In this document: piece by piece, positions 1 to 14,538 of the stretch | How positions within the stretch are numbered: the first letter of the stretch is position 1 | Layout: every line of letters begins with the position of its first letter | From: an uncultured Planctomycetales bacterium | GTDB lineage: Bacteria > Omnitrophota > Gorgyraeia > Zapsychrales > JBDRMG01 | Assembly (NCBI GenBank): GCA_964478715.1 | Contig: CAYZIY010000002.1 | Coordinates: 113,068 to 177,067, forward strand | Reading direction: 5' to 3' | Length of the DNA stretch: 64,000 nt | The notes under the pieces: generated by a model | The model's input: the letters and a program-made list of their open reading frames with translations, nothing else | Database searches by the model: none | What the model was told of the DNA's origin: nothing | Program-made: the position numbers and the translations under genes

Positions 1-328
1 GCTTTACAACATTGGAGAGCGTTCTAAAATCAAAATACGTATTGTTGTTTTTACAGTCAGCTTGCTGCTTATCAGGCGATTTTTATGGAGATTGAAAGAA
101 AAATATATCATTCGGGACTTTCATCCTCTGATCTTTTTCTATCTATTGGGTTTATCGCTGCTATTTATGAGCCTTGTTCTTTTTATCCGACTTATCGTTT
201 TATGGATTATTAAGGGACAAATCCCGCCTATCAATGCTCTTTCGTGGATGTTTAGCGTAGCGATCGGCCTGCAGTCACTCTTTTTTGCGATGTGGTTTGA
301 TATGGATTCTAATAAAGATTTTCGATGA
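1..328 (+). CDS. Partial CDS (5' end outside window). Hydrophobic C-terminal region of a membrane protein, possibly the tail of a membrane glycosyltransferase.
   Basis: The frame of ORF 62..328 stays open back to base 2 with no stop. The translation has two or three predicted TM helices. It is followed by a polysaccharide-synthesis cluster. Confidence 0.4.
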   Translation, partial: LYNIGERSKIKIRIVVFTVSLLLIRRFLWRLKEKYIIRDFHPLIFFYLLGLSLLFMSLVLFIRLIVLWIIKGQIPPINALSWMFSVAIGLQSLFFAMWFDMDSNKDFR

Positions 329-1338
329 ATATCCTTTTTGATATCAATCATCCCGCACATGTTCACTTCTTTAAGCATGCCATCAAACAGTTGGAGAAAT
401 CTGGCCATCACATTGTCATTACTTCTCGTGAGAAAGATGTTACATTAGGGCTTCTTGATGCGTGCGGTTTCTCTCATAGGCCGATCAGCAAAATTCGTAA
501 AGGACTCTGGGGAAGGCTTATAGAATTAATCGTTAGAGAGAAGAAAATTTATCAAATCATTAAGAAAGATAAGATTGATGTATGCGTAGGGATCGGCGGT
601 CCGTTTTTTGTTCATGCCGCATGGCTGCTAGGAATACCTCGCCTTGTTTTTTATGATACAGAACATGCGACACTTCAAAATATGATAACATATCCATTTG
701 CCACAAAAATTTATACCCCTGATTGTTATAAAAAGGAATTAGGCAAGAGACATGTCCGTTATAAAGGTGTTCATGAAATTGCCTATCTTTATCCCAAATA
801 TTTTTTTCCGAATTCTTCTATATTGGATGAACTTGGTCTCATAAAAGGTCAAAAACATATATTATTGCGATTTGTTTCATGGGAAGCCTCTCATGATAAA
901 GGCCAGAAGGGGTTATCATTGGAAGCAAAAAGGATGCTTATTGAAAAACTTTCTGAACACGCGAAGGTGTATATTATTTCTGAAAAGCCGCTCGATGGTG
1001 AATATAAAAAATATCAACTATCTTGCGACTCCCAACGACTTCATGATGTTTTGTATTATGCATCACTATGTATTTCGGAAGGGGCTACGGTTGTTTCGGA
1101 GTGCGCTTGCTTAGGCGTTCCATCTATTTATGTCAATTCGCAAAAACTTGGCTATATTGACCAGGAGCGGAAATATGGTTTAGTTTTTGACATAGAGAAA
1201 CCAGAGGATGTCCTTCAAAAGGCTCTTGAAATTTTGAAAAGCGATAAAAATGAATGGAAACAAAAACGAGATGAATTTGTTAAAAGCAAAATTGATGTTA
1301 CTAAATATATCACTTCGGAAATTTTACAATACCAGTAG
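325..1338 (+). CDS. DUF354-family protein (GT-B-like putative glycosyltransferase partner, commonly paired with UDP-GlcNAc 2-epimerase).
   Basis: The N-terminus MNILFDINHPAHVHFFKHAI is characteristic of DUF354. Length is 337 aa. It sits next to wecB. Confidence 0.75.
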   Translation: MNILFDINHPAHVHFFKHAIKQLEKSGHHIVITSREKDVTLGLLDACGFSHRPISKIRKGLWGRLIELIVREKKIYQIIKKDKIDVCVGIGGPFFVHAAWLLGIPRLVFYDTEHATLQNMITYPFATKIYTPDCYKKELGKRHVRYKGVHEIAYLYPKYFFPNSSILDELGLIKGQKHILLRFVSWEASHDKGQKGLSLEAKRMLIEKLSEHAKVYIISEKPLDGEYKKYQLSCDSQRLHDVLYYASLCISEGATVVSECACLGVPSIYVNSQKLGYIDQERKYGLVFDIEKPEDVLQKALEILKSDKNEWKQKRDEFVKSKIDVTKYITSEILQYQ

Positions 1339-1354
1339 AGGAATTAATATCCCA

Positions 1355-1670
1355 TGAACAATAATATCAAGACATACGAGCCAAACAATGGTTGCTGAAG
1401 CCGCTGTTTTGGGGACACTGCCTATTAGGTTTAATAATTATGTTGGTAAATTGAGTTATCTGGAAGAACTGGAACATAAATACCATCTTACCTTTCGAAT
1501 CAAAACATCCGAGCAGGAGAAATTATTGGAAAACAATTGATGCTTTACTTGCTATGCCAAATCTTAAAGAGGAATGGATGAAACGGCGCGATCGGATGCT
1601 TAATAACATGGTTGATGTAGTGGATTTTATGGTGGAATATATCGAAAATTTGAGAATAGATAGGAGATAG
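1355..1670 (+). pseudogene. Degraded C-terminal remnant of a second DUF354 paralogue, broken by frameshifts and stops.
   Basis: Two frames translate to EAAVLGTLPIRFNNYVGKLSYLEELEHKYHLTFRIKTSEQEKLLENN and DALLAMPNLKEEWMKRRDRMLNNMVDVVDFMVEYIENL. These align with the C-terminus of the upstream gene (ECACLGVPSIYVNSQKLGYIDQERKYGLVFDI...NEWKQKRDEFVKSKIDVTKYI). There is no intact ORF. Confidence 0.5.
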
Positions 1671-1671
1671 G

Positions 1672-2775
1672 TTGCTCATGAGAAAAAGAAAAATCATTTT
1701 GGTATGCGGGGCAAGGCCAAACTTTATTAAAATTGCTCCTATCTTTCGAGAGCTTAAAAAGTATCGGCATTTAAAGCCAATGATTGTCCATACGGGACAG
1801 CACTACAATAAAAACATGTCGGATTTATTCTTTTGTGATTTAGAGCTAGTGCGGCCGCATGAATGTCTCAATGTTGGTTCGGCATCGCATGCGCTTCAAA
1901 CGGCGAGAATTATGATTAAACTGGAGAAATATTTTGTCACACAAAGGCCTGATCTTGTGCTCGTTGTAGGAGATGTGAACTCCACAATGGCTGCTTCTGT
2001 TGTCGCGGCAAAACTGTCTATTCCCCTAGCACATATGGAAGCTGGATTAAGAAGCTTTGATAGAACTATGCCAGAGGAAATCAATCGTATCGTAACTGAT
2101 GCATTGTCAGACATGTTATTTACGACATGTCGGGATGCCGAAGAAAATTTAGCCAAGGAAGGCGTTCCTTCAAAAAAAATATATTTCGTCGGAAATGTCA
2201 TGATTGATTCATTGATTAAGTTAAGGAAAAAAGCTGAGAAATCAACGATTCTAAGAGATTTAAACCTTCAACCAAAAAGATACGCAGTTCTCACGCTTCA
2301 CCGGCCTAGCAATGTGGACCGCAAAGAAGTATTTCTTCGGATTTGGGATGCCATAGAAACTGTCAGCAGGAAAATCAAGATCATTTTCCCTGTTCACCCC
2401 AGGACGAAAAAGCAATTGAAGAAATTTGGCATCAAGATTTGGGGTTGTAATATTGTTTTGCTCCAACCATTGGGATATCTTAATTTTCTTAAACTCTATG
2501 GGCATGCCAAATTTGTCCTGACGGATTCTGGTGGCATTCAGGAAGAAACAACATTCTTAAACATACCTTGCGTGACACTCAGAGAGAATACAGAACGACC
2601 TATTACCATAACTAGCGGAACCAATGTTTTGGTTGGTCGAGATGGAAAATTGATCGTCAAGGCGTGCAATAAGATTATCGATAGAACCAAAAAGAATGTA
2701 CGAAAAGTTCCTCAATTATGGGATGGAAAGACATCGAAACGTATAGCTAAAATCATTACCGAATCATTGCATTAA
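1672..2775 (+). CDS. wecB: UDP-N-acetylglucosamine 2-epimerase (non-hydrolysing).
   Basis: KIILVCGARPNFIKIAPI...HTGQHY...DSGGIQEE motifs are present. Length is 367 aa. Confidence 0.9.
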   Translation: MLMRKRKIILVCGARPNFIKIAPIFRELKKYRHLKPMIVHTGQHYNKNMSDLFFCDLELVRPHECLNVGSASHALQTARIMIKLEKYFVTQRPDLVLVVGDVNSTMAASVVAAKLSIPLAHMEAGLRSFDRTMPEEINRIVTDALSDMLFTTCRDAEENLAKEGVPSKKIYFVGNVMIDSLIKLRKKAEKSTILRDLNLQPKRYAVLTLHRPSNVDRKEVFLRIWDAIETVSRKIKIIFPVHPRTKKQLKKFGIKIWGCNIVLLQPLGYLNFLKLYGHAKFVLTDSGGIQEETTFLNIPCVTLRENTERPITITSGTNVLVGRDGKLIVKACNKIIDRTKKNVRKVPQLWDGKTSKRIAKIITESLH

Positions 2776-2797
2776 TTTAAGGCAGCTTCTGTAAGAT

Positions 2798-4030
2798 ATG
2801 AAAATACTTCATTTCACCCATTCATTTTTTCCAGACTATGGCGGCACAGCAACGCGACTATATAATTTATTGTCACAATCCGAACATGAACACCATCTGT
2901 ATATTCCACTGAAAGAATCCGATTCAATAAATGAGAAGCCCATCAAAGATGACCGACATGAAATGCTTGGCAATATTCGTGTCAGCCGGAAACCGATCGC
3001 TAAAAAGAAGAAACTCAAAGTACCTTATCTGTCAACACAGATAGACATCATGAGGAGTGCATCTGAGCTCGCTAACAGTGTTCAAGGTGACGGTTTTAAT
3101 ATAGTTCATGCGCATAATCCTTTAATTTTTGCACTTGCAGGCATGAAATATGCAAAGCGTAAGAATCTGCCGCTTATTTATGAAATCCATACTTTACTCA
3201 AATACAAATCAAGCAAAGGGAAATATATTATTTGTAGAATGTTTTATTCTGCGATTGAGCAATTATTACGTTGGCAGGAAGGTAGGGTGTGCCACAGCGC
3301 AAGTCGCGTTATCGTTCAGACAGAAGATTTAAAAAAAGAGATAGCCCGTATCTATGATTTGCCAATGACTAAGATTGTTGTTATTCCCATGGGTTTCGAT
3401 AGTGATGTATTTAATCCAGATCAATGGAGTAAGCAAGGAGAAGTTCTTAAATTGAAGTATGCGTGGAAAAATAAAATAATATTTTTCTATAACGGTTTTC
3501 TGCATAGCGAAAATGGCATTGATTTCTTTTTGAAAACCGTATTGAGATTACGCGATTCTTACAAAAATAAAATTAAAATAATCATAACTGGCAGGGGACC
3601 TTTGCAAAAAGAGATTGAAAAGATGGCTCAAGAGACTGAGCATCTAATAGAGTTCATCGGTTTAGTCGACCATCAACAGATTGCATCTTATTACGCTGCA
3701 TGCGATATTGTGGTTATTCCATGGAAAGGTTTGGATAGAAAGCAGTTTAATATACCAACAAAATTATTAGAAGCTATGTCTATGAGTAAAATTATCTTGG
3801 CAAGTAGACTGAGAGGGATAATGACCATATTGAAAGAAAATGAAAACGGATTTTTGTTTGAACCTGATAATGAGAATGATTTGATTGAAAAAATTGAGAA
3901 GATTGTTTGCGAAGATGAAGATCTTAATGAGATGAGAGATCGAGCTAAGGAAGCAGTTATCCATGAATATCCTTGGAATCTTTTTAGGATGAAATTGGAG
4001 AAATTATATACAGAAATCTCCAGACATTGA
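2798..4030 (+). CDS. Glycosyltransferase family 4 (GT-B, retaining).
   Basis: N-terminal KILHFTHSFFPDYGGTA. C-terminal GT4 signature region EAMSMSKIILASRLRG...ENGFLFEP. Confidence 0.85.
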   Translation: MKILHFTHSFFPDYGGTATRLYNLLSQSEHEHHLYIPLKESDSINEKPIKDDRHEMLGNIRVSRKPIAKKKKLKVPYLSTQIDIMRSASELANSVQGDGFNIVHAHNPLIFALAGMKYAKRKNLPLIYEIHTLLKYKSSKGKYIICRMFYSAIEQLLRWQEGRVCHSASRVIVQTEDLKKEIARIYDLPMTKIVVIPMGFDSDVFNPDQWSKQGEVLKLKYAWKNKIIFFYNGFLHSENGIDFFLKTVLRLRDSYKNKIKIIITGRGPLQKEIEKMAQETEHLIEFIGLVDHQQIASYYAACDIVVIPWKGLDRKQFNIPTKLLEAMSMSKIILASRLRGIMTILKENENGFLFEPDNENDLIEKIEKIVCEDEDLNEMRDRAKEAVIHEYPWNLFRMKLEKLYTEISRH

Positions 4031-4677
4031 CAAGGAGTAGTAACGTGAAGTTAAATAAAGTTCCCACGCTTAGAATTCATTCAGTTAATCGAATCAGTTT
4101 AGATATGCAATTAATTAAGCATCTTAAGAAGCTCAAGCCGGGAGTAGTTTTGGACGTTGGTTCGAGTGCCTCACCCTATAAAAAATTTATTCCTGCAACA
4201 AAATATCTTCGACTTGACATCAACAAGGAAAGTCATCCAGATATCTGTTGCGATGTCCATCAGATAGAGTGGGCATCAAAGTTTTTTAATACAATTATTG
4301 CTTCCGAAGTTCTTGAGCATCTAGCGAATCCTGCTGTAGCTATCGAAGAAATGAGGAGAGTATTAAAATCTGGCGGAATATGCATTCTGACCACACGGTT
4401 CATGTATCCGTATCATCCTTGTCCAAAAGATTATTATCGATTTACAAAAGATTCACTGCAGATATTGTTTAGTAAATTTAGCACAATACAGATAGTGCCA
4501 CATGGTAATCGTATCCAATTGCTGTGGCAGATTATAAACAACAGTGGCAATAAGAGCTGCGGGAAACTCCAGCGAATATTCAACATCTTTCTGAATATAT
4601 TCAATCCCATATTTGCAAGAATCAACTTCATCGATAAGGGTTATCCACTCGGTTTTATTGTTGTTGCACAAAAATAG
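4027..4677 (+). CDS. Class I SAM-dependent methyltransferase.
   Basis: Motif I VLDVGSSASPY. Methyltransf_11/23-like acidic loop ASEVLEHL. Start overlaps the upstream stop (ATGA-type coupling). Confidence 0.8.
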   Translation: MTRSSNVKLNKVPTLRIHSVNRISLDMQLIKHLKKLKPGVVLDVGSSASPYKKFIPATKYLRLDINKESHPDICCDVHQIEWASKFFNTIIASEVLEHLANPAVAIEEMRRVLKSGGICILTTRFMYPYHPCPKDYYRFTKDSLQILFSKFSTIQIVPHGNRIQLLWQIINNSGNKSCGKLQRIFNIFLNIFNPIFARINFIDKGYPLGFIVVAQK

Positions 4678-4701
4678 TAACTAACCTTTATAGGTATTGT
4701 A

Positions 4702-5562
4702 ATGATCAAGCGAAGAAAAAAAGGTATTTCTGTTCTCGTTCCAACACAAAACTCACAGAAGACAGTGAAGCTATGCATAGAGTCATTTCTCGAATTTGGT
4801 GATGAGATTATTGTTGTTGATAATGGATCTAGGGATGAAACTATTAATATTGTTACCACGATTGCACAGCAATGTGAGAAGATTAAATTTTTTAATGCCC
4901 CAGACCTAGTTGATCTGTATCAGAATCGGCAATATGCTTTTGAGCGTTCCCAATATAACTGGATTGCACGAATCGATAGCGATTACGTCGCCTATACATC
5001 GGGACCGCAGGACATAAAGGAATTGAGACAACTGATAATCAATGCGAGACCATCTATTCGACCGATCGCCTATGGCATTAAGCAAGTGAATCTATATCGT
5101 GATTATTGGCACACGGGAATCGAAAGAGAGCAAAGACACAACAATAGTGGGCCGCATGTAGCATCACCGGTTGTGAGTCTGCCAGCAAGGATTATTCAAT
5201 ATTTTCCAGGAATGAAGTTTGCTAGACTTGGACGTTGGGAAGGTGTCAGATTTCAGAGATTTCTACAACATAGACATTTGGACGAGCCCTATTGGTTTCA
5301 TTGTGAATTCAAGAGTGACCTTGACTATTTCTATCGGTCAGAAAGAACAAATTGGAGACAGCTAGGCGATTATCGGCGCTTTCCGACGCTGCGCTCTTAT
5401 ATTGAACACATTCTCCCGGATAAATACGGAACGAATAATATCGACGAAGCTTGTCGTAACTATATTGAAAAACATTTGAATCGTTTTCTAATGACTTATG
5501 AACCGTTAAGGTATTATTCTTATCCTGAAATAATAAAAGAGGAAATGGAGAAATGTACGTAG
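4702..5562 (+). CDS. Glycosyltransferase family 2.
   Basis: ISVLVPTQNSQKTVKLCIESFLEFGDEIIVVDNGSRDET matches the GT2 DXD/nucleotide-binding N-terminal region. Confidence 0.85.
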   Translation: MIKRRKKGISVLVPTQNSQKTVKLCIESFLEFGDEIIVVDNGSRDETINIVTTIAQQCEKIKFFNAPDLVDLYQNRQYAFERSQYNWIARIDSDYVAYTSGPQDIKELRQLIINARPSIRPIAYGIKQVNLYRDYWHTGIEREQRHNNSGPHVASPVVSLPARIIQYFPGMKFARLGRWEGVRFQRFLQHRHLDEPYWFHCEFKSDLDYFYRSERTNWRQLGDYRRFPTLRSYIEHILPDKYGTNNIDEACRNYIEKHLNRFLMTYEPLRYYSYPEIIKEEMEKCT

Positions 5563-5596
5563 TTGACTAGGTATTTTATAACTGAAAGAGTAATTT

Positions 5597-6382
5597 ATGG
5601 ATAGTAAAGAAAAGGCGGATCTATCGAGAACGTTACAAGAAAAGTGTTATGCGTTTCCTTATCATTATCTTGTGGAGTTTAGTCAGGAAAACTTAGATAG
5701 CTTCTCTCAGGTTAAAAATAATCCCACAGGATACAGATATGCGGCCTATCTTAAAAGAGTTCTCGATGCTGTCAGCAAAGAAAAGTTTAAGAGTGTGGCA
5801 GATGTTGGGTGCGGCGATGGGTTCTTTATCAAAATATTTTCAAAACAATTTACGAATAAACGAATTGTCGGAATAGATCTTTCCGAAAATGCGCTGATGT
5901 TTGCGCGCTTACTTAACGCAAATAATGCAGCTGAGTTTTTCAATTATAATATCTTGGAAAAGAGGCCTGACGAGAAATTTGATATTGTGACTTTAATCGA
6001 AGTGCTCGAGCATATTCCACCTGATCAGATTGACTTGTTTCTTGGTGCGATTTGCAAAATGTTGCAGGATGATGGGAAGTTAATTGTGACGGTTCCTTCG
6101 GTCAATTTATCCATTGCAAATATTCAAAGACATTTTCAACATTTTAATGAAGAGAAGCTAAGGAAAGCGTTATCTCAGCATTTTGACTGTATTGAGATTG
6201 AATATATCAATAAGCAAAATTACATATCGAAAATAATACATAAAATCTTTACAAACTCGCTTTTCATATTAAACCATAAACGTTTAGCCAGTGCCCTTTT
6301 TAGATATTATCTTAATAGGTTTCTGCACGCCGACAAACATAATGGCCTAAGGCTTTTTGCCTTATGCAGAATAAATAGGTAA
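5597..6382 (+). CDS. Class I SAM-dependent methyltransferase.
   Basis: VADVGCGDGFFIKIF (motif I) and IEVLEHIPPD. Confidence 0.8.
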   Translation: MDSKEKADLSRTLQEKCYAFPYHYLVEFSQENLDSFSQVKNNPTGYRYAAYLKRVLDAVSKEKFKSVADVGCGDGFFIKIFSKQFTNKRIVGIDLSENALMFARLLNANNAAEFFNYNILEKRPDEKFDIVTLIEVLEHIPPDQIDLFLGAICKMLQDDGKLIVTVPSVNLSIANIQRHFQHFNEEKLRKALSQHFDCIEIEYINKQNYISKIIHKIFTNSLFILNHKRLASALFRYYLNRFLHADKHNGLRLFALCRINR

Positions 6383-6390
6383 ATAAACTA

Positions 6391-7863
6391 ATGCCGAATA
6401 ACGAAACAACATTATATCAAAAGTTTCACGAAACTATTAAACATGGGTTAATTTATGGGTTTGGCTCCATTATCCAAAGAATCGCAGGAGTTTTCTTAAT
6501 TCCTCTTTACACTGCCTGTTTTTCGACATCAGAGTATGGAGTTTTTGGACTATTGATGGCAACAAGTCAAATATTTGGAGTATTTATTTTGGCAGGGATG
6601 AGCACAGCATTCATGAGATCTTTCTATGATTATCAAGACAGGGCTGAAAAAAGGATGGTTGCATCCACTGCCATGTCTGTAATTTTTGTAAATAGTTTAG
6701 GAATTGGACTTCTGGGGTTATTATTTTCTAAACAAATTGCAATGTTCTTATTTCAAGATGCTCAGTATGGCATCTATATAGTTATGGTGGTGTTCATGGC
6801 GATTTTTTACCAGTTAAATTCTATACCGCTCGCAATTTTTCGCGTAAAAAAGAAATCCATTTTGTATATTTCATGCCAAATTACATTTTTCTTATTTCAA
6901 ATTGGAGCCGTGGTTTACTTTGTTGCGATAAGACAAATGGGTATTTTTGGAGCTATATATGGGTATGTTTTAGCGAGTCTGGCCTTGTTTGTCATTTTAA
7001 TAATTGTTACGCGGAAAGATATCACTTTTCGATTCTCTTTTTATGAAGCTCGAAAGATGTTACATTATGGAGTTCCTTTATTGTTGACAGGTTTAAGTGC
7101 TTTTCTTTTTAATTATATCGATCGGTATATGCTCGCCTTTTATGCCAGTTTTCATGAAGTTGGGCTTTACAACTTAGGTTATCAATTTGGCATGATTATG
7201 ATGGCTATTCTTGTAACACCTATGAAATTTATTTGGGGACCAATGTTTCTTTCTGTCAAGGACCACAGTAATGCCCATGCATTTTATGCGAGAATGCTTA
7301 CATACTTAACATGTGTTGGGTCATTGCTTTTTTTGATGTTGGCTGTTCTCTCAAAAGACGTTATACAGCTTTTTGCTAAACAGAGTTATTGGGATGCCTA
7401 TCATGTCGTTCCCGTTATTGCACTTTCTTACTTAATATGGAGTCAGCGAAGCGTGCTAGATGTAGCTATTCATTTAAAACGAAAAACAAAAATATCTGCA
7501 TTCTATTTTATTGCGGGAGCGATGATCAATATTGTTTTAAATTTAGCACTTATTCCAAGGTACCAAATGATGGGCGCAGCTTACGCTACATTAATTGCTT
7601 TTGTCGCGATGGTAATCGCTTCCTATGTTATTAATCAAAGATTAATTAAGATTGATTATGAGTGGAATAGAATTCTTAAGATATATTCGACTGCGATATT
7701 AATTTATTTTGTCACACCGTTAATTAACATAAGCAATGTATATCTTTCTCTTTTAACAAAGTCGGGATTCATTATTGTATGCTTTCCGTTGCTTCTTATG
7801 ATGCTTGGGTTTTATACATCGATAGAATTAGAAAAAATAAAAAAGATTTTAAGAATCACATAG
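6391..7863 (+). CDS. wzx: Polysaccharide/O-unit flippase, MOP superfamily (Wzx-like).
   Basis: 490 aa with about 12-14 hydrophobic helices. It sits inside the glycosyltransferase cluster. Confidence 0.75.
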   Translation: MPNNETTLYQKFHETIKHGLIYGFGSIIQRIAGVFLIPLYTACFSTSEYGVFGLLMATSQIFGVFILAGMSTAFMRSFYDYQDRAEKRMVASTAMSVIFVNSLGIGLLGLLFSKQIAMFLFQDAQYGIYIVMVVFMAIFYQLNSIPLAIFRVKKKSILYISCQITFFLFQIGAVVYFVAIRQMGIFGAIYGYVLASLALFVILIIVTRKDITFRFSFYEARKMLHYGVPLLLTGLSAFLFNYIDRYMLAFYASFHEVGLYNLGYQFGMIMMAILVTPMKFIWGPMFLSVKDHSNAHAFYARMLTYLTCVGSLLFLMLAVLSKDVIQLFAKQSYWDAYHVVPVIALSYLIWSQRSVLDVAIHLKRKTKISAFYFIAGAMINIVLNLALIPRYQMMGAAYATLIAFVAMVIASYVINQRLIKIDYEWNRILKIYSTAILIYFVTPLINISNVYLSLLTKSGFIIVCFPLLLMMLGFYTSIELEKIKKILRIT

Positions 7864-8003
7864 GATGTCTAAAAGTGATCTTCCCCCGAAAAAGTGGACA
7901 CTTAGAAGAGTTGGTGATAGCATGACAACCGGCTCAGAAGGAGGTGTCCGATGGGAGACAATGGCAAGAAAAAGTGTAATGCTCCCCATTAGTCAAGGGG
8001 AAT

Positions 8004-8786
8004 TTAAGTTAGAACCGGCTCTTTGATTTTAGGTTGATATTGTTCATAGCATTGTCTCGGCGTCATGTTATTCAGGCTTTGGTGCGGGAAGTCCGTATTG
8101 TAATCATAAATCCATTTGCCCAAAGCGACTTCGAATTCAAACGGGCTTTGCCAGTCATAGCACCAGACGATGCCTTCTTTGATGGTGCGCATGACCCGTT
8201 CGGTATCCGAATTGCCCTTAGGGTTAGACCAGGTCGTAAAGATCTGTTTGATGCCGAGAATCGAGCAGTTCATCATAAAGCGCTGACTCGTTGGCTGGCA
8301 CCCGTTATCAGAGATTAAGAATAATTGTTCTTTCATATTTTCGCGAATACCGTTGGGGAACCGGTTATTGACGGCCATCTGAATAGCGTCAAGCCAGTCT
8401 TCGGTTTTGGATTGCAAGCTAAGAGAATATCCGACGACTTCTTTGGTGTACCAGTCAAGGACGATGCACAGATACAGCCAGCCCCAGGGACCGATCTTGA
8501 TCTTTGTCATGTCTATGTCCCAGAAGTGATTGGGGTGCTGGGCCTGAGGTTTGGGACGGATGGGGCCGCGCCTGGCTTTAAGCCGTGTTTCTTTGGTCAC
8601 AAGCATATTCTGCTCTTTTAAAAGACGATAGATACGCTTCTTGTTGACAGCGATGCCTTGGCGGTACTTAAGATACGACCATATTCTCCGATAGCCCCAA
8701 AAGGGATGGTCGGTCTTAATCTCTTTGATTTGATTCAAAAGAACCCGATTACGTTCTATAACAGATTTTGATTTTGACCGTTTCAT
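8004..8786 (-). CDS. IS3-family transposase OrfB (DDE integrase core, rve).
   Basis: WDIDMTKIKIGPWGWLYLCIVLDWYTKEVVGY...SDNGCQPTS...WSNPKGNSDTERVMRTIKEG matches the DDE integrase core. It overlaps orfA by 4 nt in the -1 frame. Confidence 0.85.
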   Translation of the reverse strand: MKRSKSKSVIERNRVLLNQIKEIKTDHPFWGYRRIWSYLKYRQGIAVNKKRIYRLLKEQNMLVTKETRLKARRGPIRPKPQAQHPNHFWDIDMTKIKIGPWGWLYLCIVLDWYTKEVVGYSLSLQSKTEDWLDAIQMAVNNRFPNGIRENMKEQLFLISDNGCQPTSQRFMMNCSILGIKQIFTTWSNPKGNSDTERVMRTIKEGIVWCYDWQSPFEFEVALGKWIYDYNTDFPHQSLNNMTPRQCYEQYQPKIKEPVLT

Positions 8787-9058
8787 AGCTCGTATTCGCT
8801 TTTTTTTAACTCGATCGTGAGGTCACCGATGATGTTCTTGAGTTTGCGGACCTCTTGCTCTAAATGCTGTTCTTTCTTGGTCACGTTCTTGACTTCGAAG
8901 GCCTGATGGCCGTGCTTCAAGAGATTATCGCGCCATTTATAATATTGGGTCTGGGCGATCTGATACTTGGCGCAGAGTTTGCTGATCTCAATCTGGCCGG
9001 ATAAGCCTTCAAGAACGATTTGAAGTTTCTGCTGGCTTGACCATTTACGGTTTTTCAT
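8783..9058 (-). CDS. IS3-family transposase OrfA (HTH DNA-binding).
   Basis: MKNRKWSSQQKLQIVLEGL...KLCAKYQIAQTQYYKWRD is a typical IS3 OrfA HTH/leucine zipper. It ends at the A8 slippery run. Confidence 0.85.
   Translation of the reverse strand: MKNRKWSSQQKLQIVLEGLSGQIEISKLCAKYQIAQTQYYKWRDNLLKHGHQAFEVKNVTKKEQHLEQEVRKLKNIIGDLTIELKKSEYEL
8799..8810 (-). promoter_or_regulatory. Programmed -1 ribosomal frameshift site (A AAA AAA) joining orfA and orfB.
   Basis: The minus strand reads TTAAAAAAAAGC immediately before the orfA stop. Sliding -1 puts the ribosome into the orfB frame (…KKKRIRAMKRSK…). Confidence 0.6.
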
Positions 9059-9127
9059 CGAATAAGCCTCCTTTTTGGTTGGAGCCTTATTCTAACTTAA
9101 AAACCTCAATCTGTTAATGGGGAGCAG

Positions 9128-10046
9128 TATAAAAGAGACGGGGAACGGTTCCGATTCATAGACGAAAACGTTTCTGTCTTTCCGCTCGGGAAGATGTGCC
9201 GGATTTTGGAAGTATCAAGGAGCGGTTATTACGCGTGGTAGAAGCGACCGAAGAGTCAACGCAGGATCAATAACGAAACATTGCTCATTGAGATACAACG
9301 TGTGTTCATGGAGAACGACGCGAATTTTGGGAGCCCGAGGATCTGGAACGAGTTAAATAACGTCCAAGGCATCGGGTGTTCCAGGAACCGCGTGGCCCGA
9401 CTGATGCGTGAGGCGGGGCTGGCAGCGATCCATAAACGCAAGTTTAAAGTTACAACGAACTCGAAGCACAACTGGCCGGTGGCGCCCAATTTATTGGAAC
9501 GCAATTTCAACATTGATGAGCCCAATAAAATTTGGGTGACGGATATCAGTTATATCTGGACATGGGAAGGCTGGCTGTATTTGGCGTTTGTGTTAGACTT
9601 GTTCTCACGAGGCGTAGTTGGACTGACCATGTCGAACAGAATGACGGATGAATTAACGCAGAATGTGCTAAATCAGGCCATTGGCCGACGGAATCCTGAG
9701 TCTGGGCTGATTCATCATTCGGACCGTGGCAGCCAATACGCCAGCGGCGATTATCAGGCGCTGCTTAAAAAGCACAAAATCACACCGAGCATGAGCCGTA
9801 AAGGCGATTGCTGGGATAACGCTGTTGCTGAGAGTTTTTTACACACGTTAAAAGTTGAGAAAGTAAACCGTTATAGGTTTAAAACGAGGGATGAAGCAAA
9901 AAGAGAAATCTTTCGTTATATCGAGATGTATTACAACCGGAAAAGAACGCATTCATCCCTCGGGTATCTTAGCCCGTTTGAGTACGAAAAGCGTTCGGTT
10001 CCATCTTTATTAACCGTCCACTGATCTGGGGAAGGTCAACAGTAAA
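9128..10046 (+). mobile_element. 5'-truncated second IS3-family element (orfB only). Its orfA/left end was replaced by the nested IS at 7980-9127.
   Basis: The region 9140-9280 encodes the typical OrfB N-terminal segment (…KMCRILEVSRSGYYAW*KRPKSQRR…) with an in-frame TAG at 9239-9241. No orfA or left inverted repeat is present. The right boundary is uncertain. Confidence 0.55.
9281..10024 (+). CDS. IS3-family transposase OrfB (integrase core) of the truncated copy. Probably non-functional.
   Basis: IWVTDISYIWTWEGWLYLAFVLDLFSRGVVG...HSDRGSQYAS...CWDNAVAESF matches the DDE integrase. Upstream in-frame stop. No cognate orfA. Confidence 0.75.
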   Translation: MLIEIQRVFMENDANFGSPRIWNELNNVQGIGCSRNRVARLMREAGLAAIHKRKFKVTTNSKHNWPVAPNLLERNFNIDEPNKIWVTDISYIWTWEGWLYLAFVLDLFSRGVVGLTMSNRMTDELTQNVLNQAIGRRNPESGLIHHSDRGSQYASGDYQALLKKHKITPSMSRKGDCWDNAVAESFLHTLKVEKVNRYRFKTRDEAKREIFRYIEMYYNRKRTHSSLGYLSPFEYEKRSVPSLLTVH

Positions 10047-11261
10047 ATGAATCTTGAAAGCACTCAAGTTCTTTATATTGCATATGGGGGGATCATGCAA
10101 AATGTTTTTGATTCTCAAGTATTACAGTATGTGAAGTGCCTGAGGGAACGCAATGTCGGAATTACATTAATTGTTTTTGATCAATTTAATAAGATTTTCT
10201 TAAAAGAATATTTCCAAAAGAGAAAGAAGATCAAGGAAGATCTCGGCGAGCATGTTTATTGTATGTTTAGATTACCTCTCATGGGACGTTTCAGCGTTCA
10301 GATTGATGCGTTTAGACTACATTTATATTTTAAGAAACATTTTCAATCTAAATACAAGAAGATTATATTTCATTGTCGTAATTTATGGGCATCTTATCTT
10401 GCTTTGAAAAGTATAAAAAACAAGGAGAATATATTTCACGTTTTAGCGGATATCAGAGGAGATCAAATAGCAGAATATCGATGCTATTACCCAGATTCGC
10501 TACTCACCAGATGGAAAATAAAAGAACTTCAATTAGTGGGGCATTACACTTGCAAGCACGTAACAAAATTGTTTTGTGTTTCCTCAGTTTTGGCAGAAAC
10601 TTTGGAGAAAAAATATTGTATCAATACGGATGATATTATTGTGGTGCCGACATGCGTCGATCATAGAATATATTCATCTAACTATGATTCAAGAAAGGCT
10701 CTGAGAAAGAAACTTGGCATTGCCGATAAGTTTGTTATTGTTTACAACGGAGGGCTGCAGGGGTGGCAAAACTTCGAAGGCCTCATCCAGATAGCGACAA
10801 AAATCAGTCAGATAGATAGCACCACATTTTTCTTTGTTTTAACAAAAGATGTTTCTACAGCAAAAACATATCTTGAAAAACATTCTTTTCCAAAAGAACA
10901 GTATAAGGTTATGAATTTGCAATATGGTAAAATGGCGAAATTTCTATCGTGCGGCGATCTCGGGCTGCTTGTTAGAAAGCAGAATGATGTGAATAAAGTT
11001 GCAAGCCCAACAAAATTTGCCGAATATCTCGCATGCGGAATGCCAGTATTGGTGAGTCCGAATATCGGTGATACGGAATCAATCATCAAGAATGAAAATG
11101 TTGGTTTCGTTTTAGGAAATGATTTGCAGTTAGCAGCCTTACTGAAGAGGATAAAAGATGATCGTGAAGCCCTTGCAGCTGATTGCATGAAGGTCGCAAT
11201 GAAATATTATGACTTAGAGACCTATCTTGATCAAATTCAGAATATTTATGATTCAATATAG
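10047..11261 (+). CDS. Glycosyltransferase family 4.
   Basis: N-terminal VLYIAYGG. C-terminal KFAEYLACGMPVLVSPNIGDTESIIKNENVGFVL (EX7E-like GT4 motif). Confidence 0.8.
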   Translation: MNLESTQVLYIAYGGIMQNVFDSQVLQYVKCLRERNVGITLIVFDQFNKIFLKEYFQKRKKIKEDLGEHVYCMFRLPLMGRFSVQIDAFRLHLYFKKHFQSKYKKIIFHCRNLWASYLALKSIKNKENIFHVLADIRGDQIAEYRCYYPDSLLTRWKIKELQLVGHYTCKHVTKLFCVSSVLAETLEKKYCINTDDIIVVPTCVDHRIYSSNYDSRKALRKKLGIADKFVIVYNGGLQGWQNFEGLIQIATKISQIDSTTFFFVLTKDVSTAKTYLEKHSFPKEQYKVMNLQYGKMAKFLSCGDLGLLVRKQNDVNKVASPTKFAEYLACGMPVLVSPNIGDTESIIKNENVGFVLGNDLQLAALLKRIKDDREALAADCMKVAMKYYDLETYLDQIQNIYDSI

Positions 11262-11310
11262 TGTAAATGAAATCGATATCTCATTTTTAAATTAAATTCT
11301 AAAAAATGGC

Positions 11311-12411
11311 ATGCCCATGAAAGGAATCGAATCACAGAAATATAGAAAAGTTAGATTAGGAGTATGCCTACGACTTCACAACAAGCAGGCGGCTGAGCAT
11401 CTTAAGCCACTTCTTGACCATCCTTCTGTTACCAAGCTTCACATTGTCCGCCATGAGCCGATCAAGGGCCTGGCGTCATCAAAGGTTCAATATTACATTA
11501 TTAATAATAAAATGAAATGTCGTCGATTTTTTCTCATGTACCAAAAATGCAAGGAATTAGTCAGGAATAATCAAGTTGACGCATTTGTTTCCTTTAACCC
11601 AATTCCGTATGGATGTATTTCAGCCCTAGCTTCAAGATCAAAGAATATCCCTTTTCATTTTGGATTCATTGGTAGCGATTGGTACGGAAATTCGCAGTCA
11701 TTATTCTGGAGAATATTCAAATCGCTACTTAAAAAAGCTAGCTTTATAACAGTGACCGGAAAAAGTATGCTTAACCAAACAATCAGCATGGGTTTAAATC
11801 CAGAAAATATCGCTGTTTTACCGCATTCTATTGATCTTGAGCGATTTCAGATTTGTGATCAAGGAGTTAAGAAATATAATTTTATTTTCGTTGGTCAACT
11901 AATTAAACGTAAGCGTGTCGATCTCATCCTGCAAGCTTTGAGCATGATTAGAAAAGAATATCAGAATACAAAATTGTGCATTGTTGGGGATGGTCCATTA
12001 CGAAAGGCTTTAGAACAACAAGTGCGGCGGCTTGCGTTAACCGATGCAGTCGACTTTATTGGGCAAACGGATTCCGTACAAAACTATCTTAATCAGGCTA
12101 AGATTTTAGTCATGGCATCTGATATGGAAGGATTTCCATTTGCTATAGTTGAAGCGCTTTGTTCTGGGCTCGTACCAGTAAGCACAAGAACAGGAACCAT
12201 CGATGATGTGCTGATTGATGGCAAGAGTGGATTTATCGTTGAGTGCAGGGATGTCAATGGTTTGGCGAATAGTATGGTTCGTTTGCTTAAGGATCACAAT
12301 TTATATCAACAAATGCAGGAGGACATTTTCAAGCTGAGAAAAGACTATACTTATGAGAAGGCAACAGACATTTGGGATCAGTGGTTAAGTAAGCTAGAAA
12401 AAACAAGCTAG
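11311..12411 (+). CDS. Glycosyltransferase family 4.
   Basis: GFPFAIVEALCSGLVPVSTRTGTIDDVLIDGKSGFIV is a canonical GT4 C-terminal motif. Confidence 0.85.
   Translation: MPMKGIESQKYRKVRLGVCLRLHNKQAAEHLKPLLDHPSVTKLHIVRHEPIKGLASSKVQYYIINNKMKCRRFFLMYQKCKELVRNNQVDAFVSFNPIPYGCISALASRSKNIPFHFGFIGSDWYGNSQSLFWRIFKSLLKKASFITVTGKSMLNQTISMGLNPENIAVLPHSIDLERFQICDQGVKKYNFIFVGQLIKRKRVDLILQALSMIRKEYQNTKLCIVGDGPLRKALEQQVRRLALTDAVDFIGQTDSVQNYLNQAKILVMASDMEGFPFAIVEALCSGLVPVSTRTGTIDDVLIDGKSGFIVECRDVNGLANSMVRLLKDHNLYQQMQEDIFKLRKDYTYEKATDIWDQWLSKLEKTS

Positions 12412-12562: not shown

Positions 12563-14538
<1,976 letters not shown>

Follow-up and report, generated by a model that had tools for sequence, protein, structure and literature searches.

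Insertion sequences (IS) of the IS3 family, for which IS3 and IS911 are the prototypes, transpose in a copy-out/paste-in manner through a circular intermediate. In IS2 from E. coli, one end is a canonical CA-3' end and the other is a TA end, only the canonical end serves as donor, and 5 bp of the target are duplicated. Deletions adjacent to IS3-family elements have been explained by transposase-induced breaks that are repaired by microhomology end-joining, and IS-adjacent deletions range from a few nucleotides to more than 40 kb (PMC9943667). For the deletions adjacent to IS150 at the rbs operon, recombination between two copies of the element has been described (PMC4173774).

Here, we analyzed a stretch of 64,000 nucleotides (hereafter the window, to which all positions refer) from an uncultured Planctomycetales bacterium (assembly GCA_964478715.1, contig CAYZIY010000002.1, positions 113,068-177,067). 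The spacer between a gene for a Wzx-type oligosaccharide flippase (wzx) and a GT4 glycosyltransferase (GT) gene in a glycan cluster of this window is the site of a nested pair of IS3-family elements, of which we call the inner one IS-A and the outer one IS-B. The pair covers positions 7876-10038, which corrects the span of 7980-10046 given in an earlier interpretation made from the letters of the window (the sequence-only reading). With a probability of roughly 0.88, we interpret the pair as two unrelated IS3-family elements, with a complete IS-A located within a defective IS-B.

Two nested IS3-family elements between wzx and a GT4 gene

The outer element was recognized from two segments on the plus strand. 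The left segment (7876-7974) is 88% identical to positions 1-102 of the 1261-bp references that were closest to IS-B in a BLAST alignment (L093-L099), and the right segment (9132-10038) aligns without gaps to positions 355-1261 of these references with 83% identity. Since both of these collinear halves flank IS-A, IS-B spans positions 7876-10038 and encloses IS-A. The left segment starts with an inverted repeat (IR), TGATCTTCCCCCGAAAAAGTGGACAC (7876-7901), that matches the left IR of relatives L003-L014 at every position, and it also contains a promoter-like site identified in a consensus scan (TGGACA-17-TAGCAT, 7895-7923), a Shine-Dalgarno-like GGAGG and an orfA start codon at position 7951 with eight codons. 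The right segment contains a remnant of orfB that extends from just past the lost frameshift site to the stop codon at 10022-10024 and matches the Pfam domains rve (3e-29), HTH_21, rve_3 and rve_2; it terminates with the right IR (10014-10038), which ends ...GTCCACTGATCTGGGGAAGGTCA. The inverted repeats of IS-B are thereby of the TG...CA type that characterizes the IS3 family.

The inner element, IS-A, is a complete element of 1157 bp on the minus strand (7975-9131), flanked on either side by a copy of the direct repeat AAAG (7971-7974 and 9132-9135), as read in the sequence; a target-site duplication of this size falls within the 3-5 bp of the family. That one IS had landed inside the other was already proposed in the sequence-only reading, and the two flanking IS-B halves together with the 4-bp target duplication provide stronger evidence for this than was then available.

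The second element had been thought to be missing both orfA and the left IR, which would make it a 5'-truncated fragment with IS-A abutting its broken end. It is correct that most of orfA is gone, that neither an orfA nor an IR is located between IS-A and the orfB remnant, and that truncated copies of the IS-B group exist elsewhere (e.g., L010). However, the left IR, the promoter-like site and the first eight codons of orfA are retained at 7876-7974 on the other side of IS-A, in a segment that is 88% identical to reference positions 1-102. This left IR match and the alignment beyond IS-A refute the truncated-fragment explanation, to which we attach next to no probability. For annotation, the nested interpretation implies that positions 7876-10038 contain a defective IS3-family element into which an intact one is inserted, rather than an IS next to a truncated fragment.

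The termini of IS-A were defined by comparison to relatives with unrelated flanks, namely L086-L088 (about 85% DNA identity) and L089-L092 (about 77%). In all of L086-L092, TATAC is located directly outside TGC(T/A)CCCCATTA on the orfA side, and TGTAA is read inward on the orfB side. The termini of IS-A are accordingly 5'-TATAC...TTACA-3', or at greater length and in its own orientation 5'-TATACTGCTCCCCATTA...TAATGGGGAGCATTACA-3', with the end sequences also given as 5'-TATACTGCTCCCC...GGGGAGCATTACA-3'. The orfB-side end, TTACA-3', is canonical, whereas the orfA-side end is TA in every relative examined. The inverted repeats are bipartite, with the terminal 17 nt matching at 15 of 17 positions and the internal TTTAAGTTAGAA matching at all 12. 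The sequence-only reading had correctly identified TGCTCCCCATTA and TTTAAGTTAGAA as inverted repeats present at both ends, but the TG...CA termini that it placed at 7980-9126 are each 5 nt too far in. We assign IS-A to positions 7975-9131 because the relatives conserve five more bases at each end and the 4-bp repeats are located directly outside of these.

A scan of the Joint Genome Institute (JGI) metagenomes with a left-end pattern retrieved 54 loci, for 17 of which both ends could be located. Perfect 4-bp direct repeats were found just outside of TATAC...TTACA in seven of these 17 copies, representing five distinct sites, as compared to about 0.07 expected by chance. The duplications at the five sites (CTGA, ATTC, CGAT, TAAT and GTTC) show no preference for AAAG. 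With the ends of the IS-A group now defined (TATAC...TTACA, 4-bp duplication), the annotation of thousands of metagenomic copies will be facilitated.

These ends also bear on whether both transposase genes could be parts of one compound element that is mobilized as a unit. The intact IRs of IS-B enclose the entire block of 2163 bp, which a full-length IS-B elsewhere could in principle mobilize in trans, and two relatives of IS-B (L003 and L011) carry passenger genes within their IRs. Yet IS-A has its own inverted repeats and its own 4-bp duplication inside IS-B, the block itself is not flanked by a target duplication, and an OrfB of the IS-A type was found in none of 80 loci of the IS-B group. 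Moreover, neither the block nor either of the two IS has another copy in the window. We therefore consider a composite mobile unit to be very improbable.

We also evaluated the risk that the nested arrangement represents a chimeric join of repeated IS sequences in the metagenome-assembled genome (MAG). The junctions of the nested pair were recovered at 100% identity in Logan assemblies generated independently from two runs (SRR7048227 and SRR7048228), with the wzx/IS-B-left/IS-A junction in L083 (5653-8378) and the IS-A/IS-B-right/GT4 junction in L002 (8356-10546) as well as in L001 and L085 (8385-14266). L083 and L002 overlap inside IS-A at 8356-8378. It is a point in favor of an artefact that all four Logan contigs that reach IS-A (L001/L085, L002 and L083) stop inside its orfB at 8356-8385, and that short-read assemblies of these IS groups give inconsistent flanks (L097/L098). 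Against it, besides the two assemblies, stand the matching AAAG repeats and the collinear IS-B halves, which are not expected of a chimera, and we find an assembly artefact hardly credible. A further Logan contig, L084, corresponds to positions 6196-7882 and ends 7 nt into the left IR of IS-B. L097 and L098 are identical copies of the IS-B group that have a common left flank and different right flanks, which suggests chimeric assembly or recombination; target duplications deduced from short metagenome contigs are unreliable.

Coding content and relatives of the two elements

The ORF listing and the Pfam searches confirmed that IS-A contains two intact open reading frames (ORFs) on the minus strand, as claimed from the sequence: orfA (8783-9058), for a helix-turn-helix (HTH) protein of 91 aa (HTH_Tnp_1, 1e-11), and orfB (8004-8786), for a DDE transposase of 260 aa (rve 1.2e-17, HTH_21 and rve_3), which overlaps orfA via ATGA. 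The A8 slippery run was likewise recovered (8800-8807, minus strand; TTA AAA AAA AGC in zero frame), inside orfA just before the ATGA overlap. Two ORFs joined by a slippery site are typical of the IS3 family, and a -1 frameshift is predicted for IS-A. L124, a relative with about 77% identity, shares the slippery motif GAGTTAAAAAAAAGCGAA, and the stimulatory RNA structure looked for downstream of the site was not significant (z = -1.14). A promoter-like site, TTAACA-17-TAGAAT, was identified upstream of orfA at 9117-9089 in the consensus scan (10/12).

The reconstructed OrfAB fusion is 351 aa long without a stop codon, and candidates for the D, D and E residues are found in the OrfB translation in the motifs WDIDMT, ISDNG and DTERV. 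Neither orfA nor orfB differs in length from its counterparts in the relatives, of which those used for the comparison of orfB are 92% identical. Judged from these features, IS-A is intact and could be active. The transposase would be a DDE enzyme, with the OrfAB fusion arising from -1 frameshifting on A AAA AAA, and the element would be expected to move by copy-out/paste-in via a circular intermediate.

In IS-B, the codon at 9239-9241 is an in-frame TAG, as noted previously; YYAW*KRPKS is read here, as compared to YYAWKKRPKS, with lysine, in the closest references. The conceptual translation of orfB from position 9128 is YKRDGERFRFIDEN...SGYYAW*KRPKS. Only eight codons of orfA are left and the -1 frameshift site is lacking in IS-B, while full-length relatives have both.

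We assign both elements to the IS3 family because both OrfB proteins score above the cut-off of 160 bits for the NCBIfam model NF033516, IS-A barely so (178.7 bits) and IS-B by a wide margin (320.9 bits). For IS-A, the assignment is also based on the ORF architecture, the inverted repeats and the target duplication, and for IS-B on its relatives. Membership of IS-A in the IS2 group was rejected, since its OrfB reached 47 bits on the IS2 TnpB model as compared to a cut-off of 597; the OrfB of IS-B reached 36 bits on the same model.

At E <= 1e-20, 2372 homologs of the IS-A OrfB were identified, most of which are metagenomic. Few of them are named by organism, these being from two Omnitrophota MAGs and one Syntrophaceae MAG. 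The exact IS-A OrfB has no record in the gene-position index of public assemblies. The exact Wzx, GroEL and IS proteins were all located on one NCBI contig of 211,998 bp, presumably the one from which the window derives.

For IS-B, a comparison of its 247-aa ORF to species-representative genomes identified relatives that are 50-69% identical in protein sequence, the closest of which are mostly from MAGs of Omnitrophota, Planctomycetota and Nitrospirota. The complete elements among them are 1263-1265 bp long, and the distance from the left IR to the point that corresponds to residue 1 of the ORF is 506 bp, as compared to 257 bp in the window with IS-A removed. The closest copies found have 83-88% DNA identity, and no closer reference was obtained via the cluster representative P0129 (81-82%). 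Duplications of 3 bp were observed in five relatives (ATT, GTC, GAG, CAT and TAG), and many metagenome copies have none.

Two of the IS-B relatives in Omnitrophota MAGs contain a passenger gene between the orfB stop codon and the right IR. In L003 (2495-4543, 2049 bp) this gene encodes a 256-aa TPR protein (TPR_1, 5.9e-47), and the whole unit, which is flanked by ATT/ATT, seems to have moved as one piece. In L011 (2495-4454, 1960 bp) the passenger encodes a 216-aa protein with a hydrophobic N-terminus. L010 (3073-3858) contains a right-end fragment of the IS-B group (reference positions 1170-1261) that is directly followed by a 5'-truncated copy (568-1261). A nesting in the opposite direction was seen in L139 (reverse complement, 2720-4526), where an element of the IS-A group halts at OrfB residue 95 and an IS-B-like element (OrfB 51% identical) starts. 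Elements of the two groups therefore occur in the same hosts and have inserted into one another.

The gap in IS-B and the order of events

IS-B lacks reference positions 103-354 (252 bp), which extend from approximately codon 10 of orfA to 12 nt past the A7 frameshift site (about 327-333). The ends of this gap coincide exactly with the ends of IS-A, and both are located at native AAAG motifs. In the closest references, the breakpoints are AAGAAGAAG|CGG (AAGAAG|CGG) and TTTTCA|AAAGAGACC, and the first of these reads AAGAAAAAG in the lineage of the window. With AAAG counted once, 256 bp have been lost from IS-B, and the lost stretch lay between short direct repeats. An IS-B freed of IS-A and left with a single AAAG would have its orfA start out of frame with orfB, and a functional IS-B fusion would therefore not be made. 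The out-of-frame orfA start and the TAG codon make IS-B defective with or without IS-A, and what is left is a dead relic whose ends are still intact.

We propose that IS-B, of which the relatives are 1261-1265 bp long with TGATC...GGTCA ends, would have entered the short spacer between wzx and the GT4 gene in the orientation of the operon. The later integration of IS-A, on the opposite strand, would have targeted an AAAG in the 5' part of IS-B, and this 4-bp motif would have been duplicated in the process. The gap we take to be a short-repeat (microhomology) deletion, and its timing relative to the arrival of IS-A can be envisaged in several ways.

We put about even odds on a deletion after IS-A had arrived at one AAAG. 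In this route, a break at the IS-A end would have set off the loss of the DNA lying between the duplicated AAAG next to the element and the second AAAG. We lean towards this route because deletions adjacent to IS3-family elements have been documented. In another scenario, which we consider possible but short of even odds, the short-repeat deletion took place in IS-B first and IS-A then hit the AAAG at the exact junction. A third route consists of two insertions of IS-A in the same orientation at both AAAG sites, 256 bp apart, followed by homologous recombination that removed one copy and the intervening DNA. This is the accepted path for IS150-adjacent deletions (PMC4173774) and accounts for both gap ends being located exactly at the ends of IS-A. 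It is an improbable course of events here, since it demands two independent hits within 256 bp, both at AAAG, for which the relatives have no preference, and since a single IS-A is seen in the window as well as in the assembly.

Several observations weigh against the nested interpretation or the history proposed for it. IS-B is not flanked by a target duplication (AAG at 7873-7875 vs ACA at 10039-10041), and its arrival by simple insertion is putative. The left terminus of IS-A is TA and not the canonical TG, and its exact OrfB is found on one NCBI contig only in the sequence collection, with no second genome copy known. The deletion-first and the insertion-first routes each need positions to coincide by chance, with odds that are comparable for the two (roughly 1-2 in 1000, with an outer range of 1 in 250 to 1 in 1000), and the same final sequence is obtained from all three routes. 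No intermediate form of the nested pair was found, and the JGI metagenomes gave no matches in a single exact-pattern scan for ATGGCAAGAARAAGAGACSGGGAACGG, the junction expected for a deleted IS-B free of IS-A, which is uninformative since the organism seems to be absent from that dataset.

The glycan cluster and comparison with described IS elements

A Pfam scan supported the earlier placement of the pair between a Wzx flippase gene and two GT4 genes, all on the plus strand. The stop codon of wzx (6391-7863; Polysacc_synt_3 6e-20, Polysacc_synt 2.8e-16) is located 12 bp before IS-B. The first GT4 gene (10047-11261; Glyco_transf_4 and Glycos_transf_1) has its ATG 8 bp past the end of IS-B, and the second (11311-12411; Glycos_transf_1 1.6e-36) closes the low-GC cluster ahead of groES. 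Both GT4 genes are intact. The genes on the plus strand at 325-12411 are tightly packed.

The GC content of the polysaccharide cluster on either side of the IS pair is 36.5%, as compared to 43.1% for the rest of the window (12412-64000), 45.3% for IS-A and 47.6% for IS-B. The low-GC cluster (1-12411) stops directly upstream of groES/groEL (12563-14538) and looks like an island beside core genes that was either horizontally acquired or is evolving fast. The earlier suggestion that the locus is a recombination-prone accessory region is plausible in view of this difference in GC content, of a nearest other Wzx homolog with only 49% identity, and of the IS elements in a related cluster (L159). No related strain was available in which to look for an allele with an empty site, the nearest other Wzx homolog being that distant, and wzx is not followed by these GT4 genes in either of two homologous clusters examined.

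The related cluster, L159 (1-9025; GCA_964596255.1, CAZQTT010000016.1), is syntenic over genes for a GT4, a 216-aa protein, a GT2 (60% identical), a methyltransferase (57%) and wzx (45%). In L159, the methyltransferase gene and wzx are separated by a different IS3-family element, with an OrfB that is 43% identical to that of IS-B, and a further transposase gene is located downstream of wzx. L159 is consistent with a build-up of IS elements at such loci and with the general view that these loci are variable.

The block splits the polysaccharide cluster between the flippase gene and the last two GT genes and may reduce or alter the synthesis of surface glycans. With these 2163 bp between the two GT4 genes and the genes upstream in the cluster, GT4 expression would have to rely on read-through, to which the promoter-like site at the left end of IS-B could at most contribute and which convergent transcription of IS-A would oppose. 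Polarity on the GT4 genes, as had been suggested, is plausible. An outward-facing promoter at the IS end, which had also been suggested, was not identified near position 10047 or at the right end of IS-B in the consensus scan, which is a weak test. In the region as a whole, seven promoter-like sites were found as compared to 5.9 expected from shuffling, which is weak evidence either way, and the only terminator-like site on the plus strand in the scan is a weak one. The purine-rich GGGGAAGG of the right IR of IS-B (10028-10035) is located 11 nt upstream of the GT4 start codon and might be a candidate ribosome-binding site for the first GT4 gene.

The nested pair is ordinary mobile-element biology, with new members of a known IS family and nothing unexpected to a specialist. 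The deletion in IS-B resembles the deletions associated with IS629/IEE and IS150 in that it starts exactly at an IS end and finishes at a short repeat. It differs from these in that both ends of the gap touch the IS and a perfect 4-bp repeat remains, and in that the deletion could equally predate the insertion.

Compared to the IS3 family in general, with IS3 and IS911 as prototypes, IS-B is alike in the OrfB domains HTH_21, rve, rve_3 and rve_2, in the match to NF033516 and in the TG...CA ends. Its relatives are also alike, with lengths of 1261-1265 bp, orfA and orfB, an A7 site for -1 frameshifting and 3-bp duplications. IS-B itself differs by the missing orfA and frameshift site, the TAG codon, the interruption by another IS and the lack of a target duplication. 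Its IR, TGATCTTCCCC...GTGGACAC, resembles the IR of E. coli IS3, a resemblance that serves as a lead only and not as a test. In cultured bacteria or plasmids, the closest homologs to IS-B are about 55% identical in protein sequence. IS-A is similar to the family in the ATGA overlap of orfA and orfB, the A8 slippery run, the NF033516 score above the cut-off, the terminal inverted repeats and the 4-bp duplication, and differs by its short length of 1157 bp, its 5'-TA left terminus and a score barely above the cut-off. Among plasmid-borne IS3-family transposases, the identity to the IS-A OrfB does not exceed about 30-32%, and the plasmid relatives of the two elements, with 30-56% identity, are labelled only as “IS3 family transposase”.

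In its ends, IS-A recalls E. coli IS2, since its orfB side terminates in ...TTACA-3' and its orfA side has 5'-TATAC, although it differs from IS2 by the 4-bp duplication and by its score on the IS2 TnpB model. It is a tentative suggestion, which we consider doubtful, that IS-A represents an undescribed IS3-family subgroup with fixed asymmetric termini that is abundant in uncultured lineages, and that the gap in IS-B documents a microhomology deletion that was initiated in nature at the end of an IS. If this is true, the fixed asymmetric termini of the IS-A group would imply that a single end is used as donor, as in IS2.

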